Position numbers and translations under genes: made by a program
Notes under the pieces: generated by a model
The model's input: only the letters and a program-made list of their open reading frames with translations
The model's database searches: none
What the model was told of the DNA's origin: nothing
Shown: positions 1 through 1,165 of the stretch, one piece after another
Layout: each line of letters begins with the position of its first letter
Position numbering within the stretch: the stretch's first letter is position 1
Source of the DNA: a phage
Sequence record: OR846261.1
DNA length: 1,165 nucleotides
Direction: 5' to 3' (one strand)

Positions 1-1103
1 CCTGAGATTTTTGCATCATGCAGCGCCCCGACCATTGCGGCGGTTTCTTCAATGCTGACACCGGCATTTTTTGCCACAGGTGCGGCATAGGTCAGCGCAT
101 CGCTCATGCCGTCAAAATCGGCGGCGGTTTTGTTCATCGTCATGGAGAGAACATCCCCGATATGAGCGACCTTATCGTTTGAAAGCTGAAAGGCGGATTT
201 CATCCCCATCAGCAGGGCGGCGTTTTCTTCCATCGTGCGGCGGTTCGCCAGCGCCATATTCAGCGTGACCGGCGTTGCCGCCTGAATGGCATCAACATCC
301 CCACCCGCTTTCGCGATGATTATCTGTGCACCGGCCGCATCATCCGCCGAGGCGGCGGTATTGTCGCCGAGCTGGCGCGCCTGTTTGCGTAGTGCGGTCA
401 TTTCGGCGGAGTCTTTTGCCACTCCGAGCACGGCCTGCAATTCTGAGTTTTTCTGCGCAAACTCATAACCGGGCATCAGCAACTTAACTCCGGCCATCGT
501 TCCCGCCGCCGCAATCCCCACACCGGCAGCGCCTACTGAGGCCATATTTCCGGCCAGTTCCTTTCCTGCCTGATAACGCTGTTTGACTGCGTTAAGTTTT
601 GCCTGTTGTGCACTGACACGCGCCAGCGCGTCACGCTGACGGTTAAGCTGGGCGGTGGTTTCACTGATACGGTTTTTCAGCCCTCGTTCATCATGCGCCA
701 GATTACGGGTATTAATACCCGCCTGACTCAATTCCTGACGCTGGCGCTGTACCGACAATCTCAGGCTGTTATATTTCGCCTGTAACTCAGACGCATTTTT
801 ACGCGCGGCTTCCATTGCCTTTGCCTGTGCATTTGTCGGTCGTTCAGTATTTTTAAACTGGACAGCCAGAGCTGCGGCTTCCTGTCTGGCTTTTTTCAGT
901 TCCTGACCAGTCACGGCGAGCTGTGCACTGGTCTTGCGAAATCCCTCAATACGGGATGCCTGACCGTTCAGCTCGCGCAGTGATTTTTGTGTGTCCCGGA
1001 TATCCCCCGACAGCGACTTGCTCGCTGTACGGATGGATTTAAACGGGCGGGATGCCTGGTCAACAGCCCTGAGCAATACCTGTAATTTTACATTGTTACT
1101 CAT
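1..1103 (-). CDS. T: Phage tail tape measure protein, N-terminal portion (P2 gpT-like); 5' end complete with ATG at 1103-1101, 3' end truncated by the window edge
   Basis: Uninterrupted minus-strand reading frame from ATG (1103-1101) to window position 1, about 367 codons with no stop, by manual translation of the reverse complement. N-terminus MSNNVKLQVLLRAVDQASRPFKSIRTASKSLSGDIRDTQKSLRELNGQASRIEGFRK. Then a long Q/R/A/K/L-rich region typical of tape-measure coiled coils, e.g. NSLRLSVQRQRQELSQAGINTRNLAHDERGLKNRISETTAQLNRQRDALARVSAQQAKLNAVKQRYQAGKELAGN. Then a Gly/Ala-rich hydrophobic segment MASVGAAGVGIAAAGTMAGVKLLMPGYEF, followed by a conserved-looking core (…AKAGGDVDAIQAATPVTLNMALANRRTMEENAALLMGMKSAF…DVLSMTMNKTAADFDGMSDALTYAAPVAKNAGVSIEETAAMVGALHDAK). 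Composition and domain order match tape measure proteins of P2-like enterobacterial prophages as I recall them; no alignment was run. The start overlaps the stop of the upstream ORF, consistent with operon organisation. Confidence 0.92.
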   Translation of the reverse strand, partial: MSNNVKLQVLLRAVDQASRPFKSIRTASKSLSGDIRDTQKSLRELNGQASRIEGFRKTSAQLAVTGQELKKARQEAAALAVQFKNTERPTNAQAKAMEAARKNASELQAKYNSLRLSVQRQRQELSQAGINTRNLAHDERGLKNRISETTAQLNRQRDALARVSAQQAKLNAVKQRYQAGKELAGNMASVGAAGVGIAAAGTMAGVKLLMPGYEFAQKNSELQAVLGVAKDSAEMTALRKQARQLGDNTAASADDAAGAQIIIAKAGGDVDAIQAATPVTLNMALANRRTMEENAALLMGMKSAFQLSNDKVAHIGDVLSMTMNKTAADFDGMSDALTYAAPVAKNAGVSIEETAAMVGALHDAKIS

Positions 1104-1165
1104 TCGTGTTTCCGCTTCGCCGGAGCGCCTTTTCGCGCCATGTGATGAGTTCGGTCAGGCTCATG
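1096..1165 (-). CDS. 3' end of the upstream tail-operon ORF, probably the tail assembly chaperone frameshift extension (P2 E+E'-like); partial, 5' end outside window
   Basis: The minus-strand frame ending at TAA (1098-1096) is open to the window edge and reads …(M)SLTELITWREKALRRSGNTNE*. The in-window ATG at 1164-1162 is probably internal, not the true start. A second frame is also open, reading …HEPDRTHHMARKGAPAKRKHE* and ending at TGA (1102-1100), which overlaps the tape-measure ATG. In P2-like and many other tailed phages the gene directly upstream of the tape measure gene is a chaperone pair made by a programmed -1 frameshift (established knowledge). Which of the two frames is actually translated cannot be decided from 63-69 nt. 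Confidence 0.45.
   Translation of the reverse strand, partial: MSLTELITWREKALRRSGNTNE
1104..1116 (-). promoter_or_regulatory. Weak Shine-Dalgarno-like element (GCGGA) about 7 nt upstream of the tape-measure ATG; probable translational coupling with the upstream ORF
   Basis: The minus-strand sequence upstream of the ATG is GCGAAGCGGAAACACGA-ATG. The only purine-rich match to the anti-SD is GGA/GCGGA with a 7-nt spacer. The upstream ORF stop codons (TGA at 1102-1100, TAA at 1098-1096) overlap or abut the ATG. Confidence 0.3.

Follow-up and report, generated by a model that had tools for sequence, protein, structure and literature searches.

The window examined here is the whole of a 1,165-nucleotide stretch of phage DNA (sequence record OR846261.1). 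Its minus strand carries the 5' part of a tape-measure gene, T, the start codon of which lies within the end of a second reading frame, designated E' after its counterpart in phage P2 (Table 1). The 367-codon ORF matches PF10145 (E=2.6e-26; 93.2 bits versus a cutoff of 33.2), TIGR01760 (E=1.2e-46; 159.4 bits versus a cutoff of 28.8) and phrog_28 (E=2e-134), and every matching record labels it gpT or tape measure. Its TP901-type core domain occupies residues 199-367. In the nearly identical prophages of Escherichia coli O157:H7, which we use below as proxies for the sequence upstream of the junction, the full T ORF encodes 815 aa and lies 3' of the chaperone pair. Residues ~9-184 of the tape measure (window ~550-1080, minus strand) also recover weak, sub-threshold matches to SMC and Rad50 coiled-coil models, which fits a long alpha-helical coiled-coil segment in the N-terminal ~180 residues, before the core domain. 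Read along the minus strand, the window opens with CATGAGCCTGACC and continues through GGCGAAGCGGAAACACGAATGAGTAACAATG at the junction.

Table 1. Features of the window and their coordinates
Feature	Position	Strand	Details
Tape-measure gene T, 5' part	1..1103	minus	367 codons, cut by the window edge
Third base of the Pro codon preceding the 22 E' codons	1165	minus	
End of reading frame E': last 22 codons and TAA stop	1096..1164	minus	translation MSLTELITWREKALRRSGNTNE, then stop
Stop/start overlap ATGAGTAA, 8 nt	1096..1103	minus	T ATG 1103-1101; E' TAA 1098-1096
Frame ending at the TGA in ATGA	1100..1165	minus	translation HEPDRTHHMARKGAPAKRKHE, then stop; TGA 1102-1100; a chance open frame, not a gene
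Shine-Dalgarno-like GGAA, weak	1110..1113	minus	6 nt 5' of the T start

The closest relatives of this sequence leave little doubt as to its affinities. A search with the whole window recovered 97 phage records, all of them P2-like (Peduovirus; Yersinia, Escherichia and Salmonella P2-type phages), with identities of 92.6-97.7% among the best 25 of the 97, where Peduovirus provides the best matches. Matches were likewise obtained in 1586 of 5426 complete E. coli genomes, the best being O157:H7 prophages at 99.9%. The sole mismatch with these prophages is at window position 5 (minus-strand base 1161), far from the junction; it turns the final complete tape-measure codon from Thr (KITG) into Ser (KISG). 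At the junction itself, a 73-nt segment is 100% identical to reference phage P2. In the annotation of P2 (NC_001895), E spans 19430-19705, the joined E+E' extends to 19857 with the -1 frameshift site marked, and T begins at 19850; E' ends there 8 nt inside T, at the ATGAGTAA of the window, and the TAA-terminated frame of the window is therefore E'. Phage L-413C is annotated in the same way, with E, an E+E' join and T. The gene order FI-FII-E-E'-T-U is found in P2, L-413C, P37 and E. coli O157:H7, of which the window itself displays only T, and in the annotations of all four E/E' are placed between the tail tube gene and the tape measure gene. With the upstream part taken from the proxies, the locus agrees with P2 in gene order, frame layout, slippery heptamer, length of the fused product (142 aa) and the 8-nt overlap of E' with T; the two do not differ at the junction and show ordinary allelic differences in the tape-measure part. 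Judged by its sequence, this region corresponds to the P2 FETUD tail operon at the point where E' meets T, and is identical there to the phage in which it has been studied. Given the 99.9% identity to O157:H7 strains, the DNA most likely derives from a P2-like prophage of E. coli rather than from P2. Genes E, E+E' and T of P2 reportedly belong to this operon.

Upstream of the ATG at 1103, the T frame itself is closed by stops at 1163-1161 and 1157-1155 (minus strand), and since it has no other in-frame start in this interval, 1103 is the first possible start of T. The two remaining minus-strand frames are both open up to the window edge, the TAA frame from 1164 and the TGA frame from 1165. The initial annotation had read an ATG at 1103, a TGA sharing bases with this ATG and a TAA 5 nt inside T, all of which are correct on reading, and translation confirms its statement that both upstream frames are open to the edge. 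Its description of the locus as having two open frames upstream of the tape measure is right as regards their openness, but only the TAA frame is coding, whereas the TGA frame is at +1 relative to E and is non-coding. Openness by itself could not have separated the two: of all 21-codon stretches in the two non-coding frames of gene T, 27-29% contain no stop, where base composition predicts a fraction of 0.42, and an open frame of this length is therefore weak evidence on its own and not beyond chance.

Several observations set the TAA frame apart. The 22 aa that it encodes in the window suffice by themselves to recover PF06528 (Phage_P2_GpE) at 34 bits versus a cutoff of 23 (E=2e-8), with the match covering model positions 18-37 of 37, that is its C-terminal half; they also match phrog_1756 and phrog_6416 ('tail protein'). 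An alignment of the E' parts of 10 Peduoviridae, with hosts from Escherichia, Salmonella, Yersinia, Klebsiella, Serratia, Enterobacter, Burkholderia and Aeromonas, shows that E40, W44, A48 and R51 are invariant inside the stretch of E' covered by the window. Further, we counted variable sites by codon position over 69 distinct sequences from close loci. In the E'-only region they are distributed as 6, 2 and 14 over the first, second and third E' codon positions, and in the window's own 62 nt as 1, 2 and 6 (6 of 9 at third positions); the E-only region gives 3, 0 and 36 at the corresponding positions of E codons. It is the combination of the family match, the third-position substitutions and the conservation across genera that identifies the TAA frame as real coding sequence, and the substitution pattern indicates that E' is under purifying selection.

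The TGA frame fares differently by the same measures. It might be taken as a functional upstream frame, either a frameshift extension or a separate gene coupled to T, given that no stop interrupts its 66 nt inside the window and that it closes with a classic ATGA overlap. Yet this overlap is a by-product, because the T start codon precedes an A. The frame is placed at +1, rather than -1, relative to E; its open stretch in the O157:H7 proxy amounts to just 39 codons, and the first ATG in it comes 13 codons ahead of the stop. Stop-free stretches of 21 codons are, as noted above, common by chance in the non-coding frames of T. The frame has no Pfam or PHROG match, and of the 22 variable sites in the E'-only region, its first codon positions take up 14, the wrong phase for a coding frame. 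Eight relatives share the frame layout, and in six of them stops interrupt this frame no further than 29 nt from the T start. We accordingly reject it as a coding frame: it is open by chance and has no function, and the contrary reading is effectively refuted, with a likelihood that we regard as negligible.

Gene E and the slippery site both lie outside the window, and the frameshift part of the reading rests on the near-identical proxies. In the 99.9% identical O157:H7 locus L003, gene E has 91 codons and matches PF10109 (Phage_TAC_7) at 47 bits. It contains, in frame and after GG, the heptamer T TTT TTG (L003 1391-1397), which is situated 104 nt beyond the window edge, or at ~1269-1275 if the window numbering is extended. 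The -1 frame of the proxy is open from 1382 to 1570 (L003), from the heptamer through to the TAA of the window. The resulting fusion is 142 aa long and combines PF10109 at residues 7-85 with PF06528 at residues 104-139 (76.3 bits); the shift-junction peptide predicted for E+E' is VVGFLVAELGAVTFPK, spanning ...VVGFL/VAELGAVTFPK. An NCBIfam scan of the fused E+E' returned no match, and the name given by PGAP is thus not traced to a model in that library. TTTTTTG is present in 84 of 84 close loci and in 9 of 10 divergent Peduoviridae, the tenth having AAATTTT at the equivalent place. A tblastn search with the fused protein recovered 418 phage records, 401 of which cover at least 80% of it, and among the matches listed 39 of 40 came in two pieces.

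These features are in agreement with what has been reported for P2, where, according to PMC3091744 (which refers to Christie et al., 2002, and to Xu et al., 2004), -1 frameshifting at TTTTTTG gives rise to a 91-aa E and a 142-aa E+E'. PMC3091744 and PMC5009743, drawing on Christie et al. (2002), report for P2 both the production of the fused protein by frameshifting and its requirement in tail assembly. The efficiency of the P2-type frameshift is given as 2- to 3-fold above the low-level shift of lambda (PMC5009743), and no stimulatory RNA structure is reported in P2 (PMC3091744). We likewise found no significant RNA structure 3' of the slip site in comparison with shuffled sequences (z = -0.64), in agreement with that published absence. 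The initial annotation had attributed the region upstream of T to a P2-type tail chaperone with a longer form produced by -1 frameshifting, had placed the slippery site beyond position 1165, and had anticipated there a gpE-like ORF of about 90 codons with a slippery heptamer, the extension of which was to be compared with that of P2. All of this is borne out: the junction identical to P2, the PF06528 match and the heptamer of the proxy speak for the chaperone and its longer form, the T TTT TTG past the edge sits in a 91-codon E and leads by the -1 frame into the TAA frame, and that frame, within the 73 nt shared with P2, is the annotated E'. We therefore read the locus as the 3' end of the P2 E' frame, which would be made by a -1 frameshift in E and overlaps the start of T by 8 nt (probability roughly 0.95). 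The identity of the frame, the slippery site in the proxy, the frame layout and the purifying selection on E' come from the present analysis, and the occurrence of frameshifting is taken from the literature.

One might alternatively view E' as an independent small gene of 51 aa, initiated at a GTG that overlaps the stop of E (GTGA), and not as a frameshift product. The open-frame listing of the proxy does contain such a GTG-initiated ORF, and RefSeq/PGAP records give it as a separate CDS at 1415-1570 of the proxy loci, under the name 'GpE family phage tail protein' or 'tail protein'. Against this, in every relative the -1 frame can be followed upstream without a stop through the conserved T TTT TTG, and the -1-frame residues that lie 5' of the GTG (VAE.G) are conserved among the enterobacterial relatives. 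The separate E' ORF is made to start at inconsistent places in the relatives and is left out of some records altogether, while the P2 and L-413C records and the literature (PMC3091744, PMC5009743) give a -1 frameshift fusion. On balance we consider an independent gene highly improbable. The treatment of E' in the databases is uneven in its own right: among the records inspected, the E/E' join is annotated only in P2, L-413C and Burkholderia phage FLC10; E' stands as a free-standing 51-aa GTG-initiated CDS in the RefSeq/PGAP records of three of the loci (L002, L003 and L004); and it is omitted entirely in the records of FSL SP-004, KSP20 and phiT5282H. The name of PF06528 and many annotations present E' as a small stand-alone protein, whereas its biology is that of a C-terminal extension of gpE.

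Taking E' as this extension, the sequence of events at the locus may be pictured as follows. Ribosomes would translate E, the 91-codon tail assembly chaperone gene starting ~420 nt 5' of T, and a minority of them would slip back by one base on the T TTT TTG located 104 nt past the window edge. The slipped ribosomes would read on in the -1 frame, pass the 22 E' codons of the window and stop at the TAA at 1098-1096, yielding the 142-aa gpE+E'. Pairs of this kind are described as acting like gpG/gpGT of lambda, with the common part binding the tape measure and the extension binding the tail tube protein (PMC5009743). By analogy with gpG/gpGT, E and the E part of E+E' would hold the tape measure gpT, the E' part would probably recruit tail tube subunits, and neither E nor E+E' would be present in the finished virion. 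Lastly, ribosomes that end E' may reinitiate on the start of T with its weak Shine-Dalgarno (SD) sequence.

This last step depends on the properties of the T start. We scored SD strength as the best anti-SD pairing of the 20 nt 5' of a start, expressed as duplex energy in kcal/mol. T, at -3.5, is the weakest of the four starts scored (FII -8.4, E -5.0, U -13.4), in keeping with the 'weak SD' of the initial annotation. The T starts of 10 other Peduoviridae range from -3.3 to -7.0 kcal/mol, the SD being weak in all these relatives at overlap and gap junctions alike, and that of lambda H reaches -10.3 kcal/mol. The GGAA at 1113-1110 sits within conserved E' codons for Ser-Gly (AGC GGA). As for the geometry, all 84 close loci retain the 8-nt E'/T overlap, three of them with the sequence ATGAGTGA; in these three the E' stop is changed from TAA to TGA, with stop and overlap kept, and residue 3 of T from N to D. 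Four further phages have an overlap of 8 nt, namely Salmonella FSL SP-004 and Yersinia YenM_31.17 with ATGAGTAA and two Klebsiella phages with ATGAGTGA. More broadly, in 10 of the 11 Peduoviridae examined the E' stop and the T start overlap by at most 14 nt or lie no more than 2 nt apart, and in the eleventh, Aeromonas phage AhyVDH1, a 37-nt gap separates the two. The P2-like enterobacterial phages have E and T in the same reading frame and E' at -1 (L003 1143-1570), and the two Burkholderia phages (L088 and L091) place T at +1 with respect to E, its start following the E' stop by 2 nt (TGACGATG and TAACGATG); the proximity of stop and start is therefore kept though the frame layout changes.

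With its 8-nt overlap, the E'/T pair has the stop/start proximity seen in translationally coupled genes. This raises a further possibility, which adds to the frameshift reading and does not exclude it: T may mainly be translated by ribosomes that end E' at the TAA and reinitiate 5 nt back at the ATG at 1103, in which case the frameshift frequency would set the amounts of both gpE+E' and gpT and fix their ratio. A coupling that fixes the ratio of chaperone to tape measure had been suggested in the initial annotation. In favor of such coupling one may count the persistence of the overlap in all 84 close loci, where the sole change to the stop (in three loci) is still a stop, the adjacency of E' stop and T start in the 10 Peduoviridae noted above, and a T start that is the weakest of those scored here and weak in the relatives too. 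In addition, the zero-frame stop of E lies 145 nt 5' of T, too far for coupling; because zero-frame ribosomes stop there, only the frameshifted ones would reach the T start. The overlap of the lambda T stop with the H start is equally 8 nt. Other observations weigh on the opposite side. Short overlaps and gaps are generic in a packed operon, with U and D overlapping by 1 nt and T and U lying 14 nt apart, and dense gene packing alone would also explain the E'/T overlap. AhyVDH1 has its 37-nt gap, and lambda H combines an equal overlap with a strong SD. The weak SD of T may simply reflect the low copy number needed of the tape measure. There is also no significant RNA structure at the T start for passing ribosomes to open, the fold being no better than that of shuffled sequences (z = -0.87), and our literature search on the coupling of the frameshift chaperone to the tape measure found nothing relevant among the papers searched. 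We accordingly regard coupling of T to the termination of E' as plausible, the hints being the weak SD and the geometry, though we would put it at somewhat less than an even chance. A stronger version, by which T synthesis in P2-like phages would depend on the frameshifting minority, so that one slippery site would set gpE+E' and gpT near 1:1, is in our estimation unlikely.

RNA structure as such, whether masking the T start or stimulating the frameshift, was considered and rejected on these z-scores (-0.87 and -0.64, respectively). Separately, we noticed that ACUCAU (1145-1150, within the E' codons for E-L-I) exactly complements AUGAGU (1098-1103, the T start and second codon) on the minus strand; this 6-bp pairing sequesters the T start in the minimum-energy fold and is not significant.

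Finally, the arrangement invites comparison with lambda. The tail is contractile in P2 and non-contractile in lambda. In both G/G-T/H of lambda and E/E+E'/T of P2, a chaperone pair, the longer form of which arises by -1 frameshifting, lies just 5' of the tape measure gene. In lambda, too, the stop of the frameshift frame overlaps the tape-measure ATG by 8 nt, as ATGGCTGA against ATGAGTAA here. The two differ at the SD, which for lambda H is strong (-10.3 versus -3.5 kcal/mol for T here), and family scans found no sequence family shared between the lambda and P2 chaperone pairs. The identical 8-nt geometry of lambda T/H hints that the stronger version of coupling given above, if true, could be a general design. 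The junction itself has already been characterized in phage P2, and the observation, while correct, is ordinary and already known: what it shows, from the downstream end, is a textbook example of the programmed -1 frameshift used in phage tail assembly. It has value for annotation, as many RefSeq/PGAP and GenBank records have E' as a 51-aa gene or not at all, and the fusion with E should be annotated in its place. The coupling of T to E', if true, would account for the proportion kept between the tape measure and the long chaperone, and would be a modest refinement of a known system.
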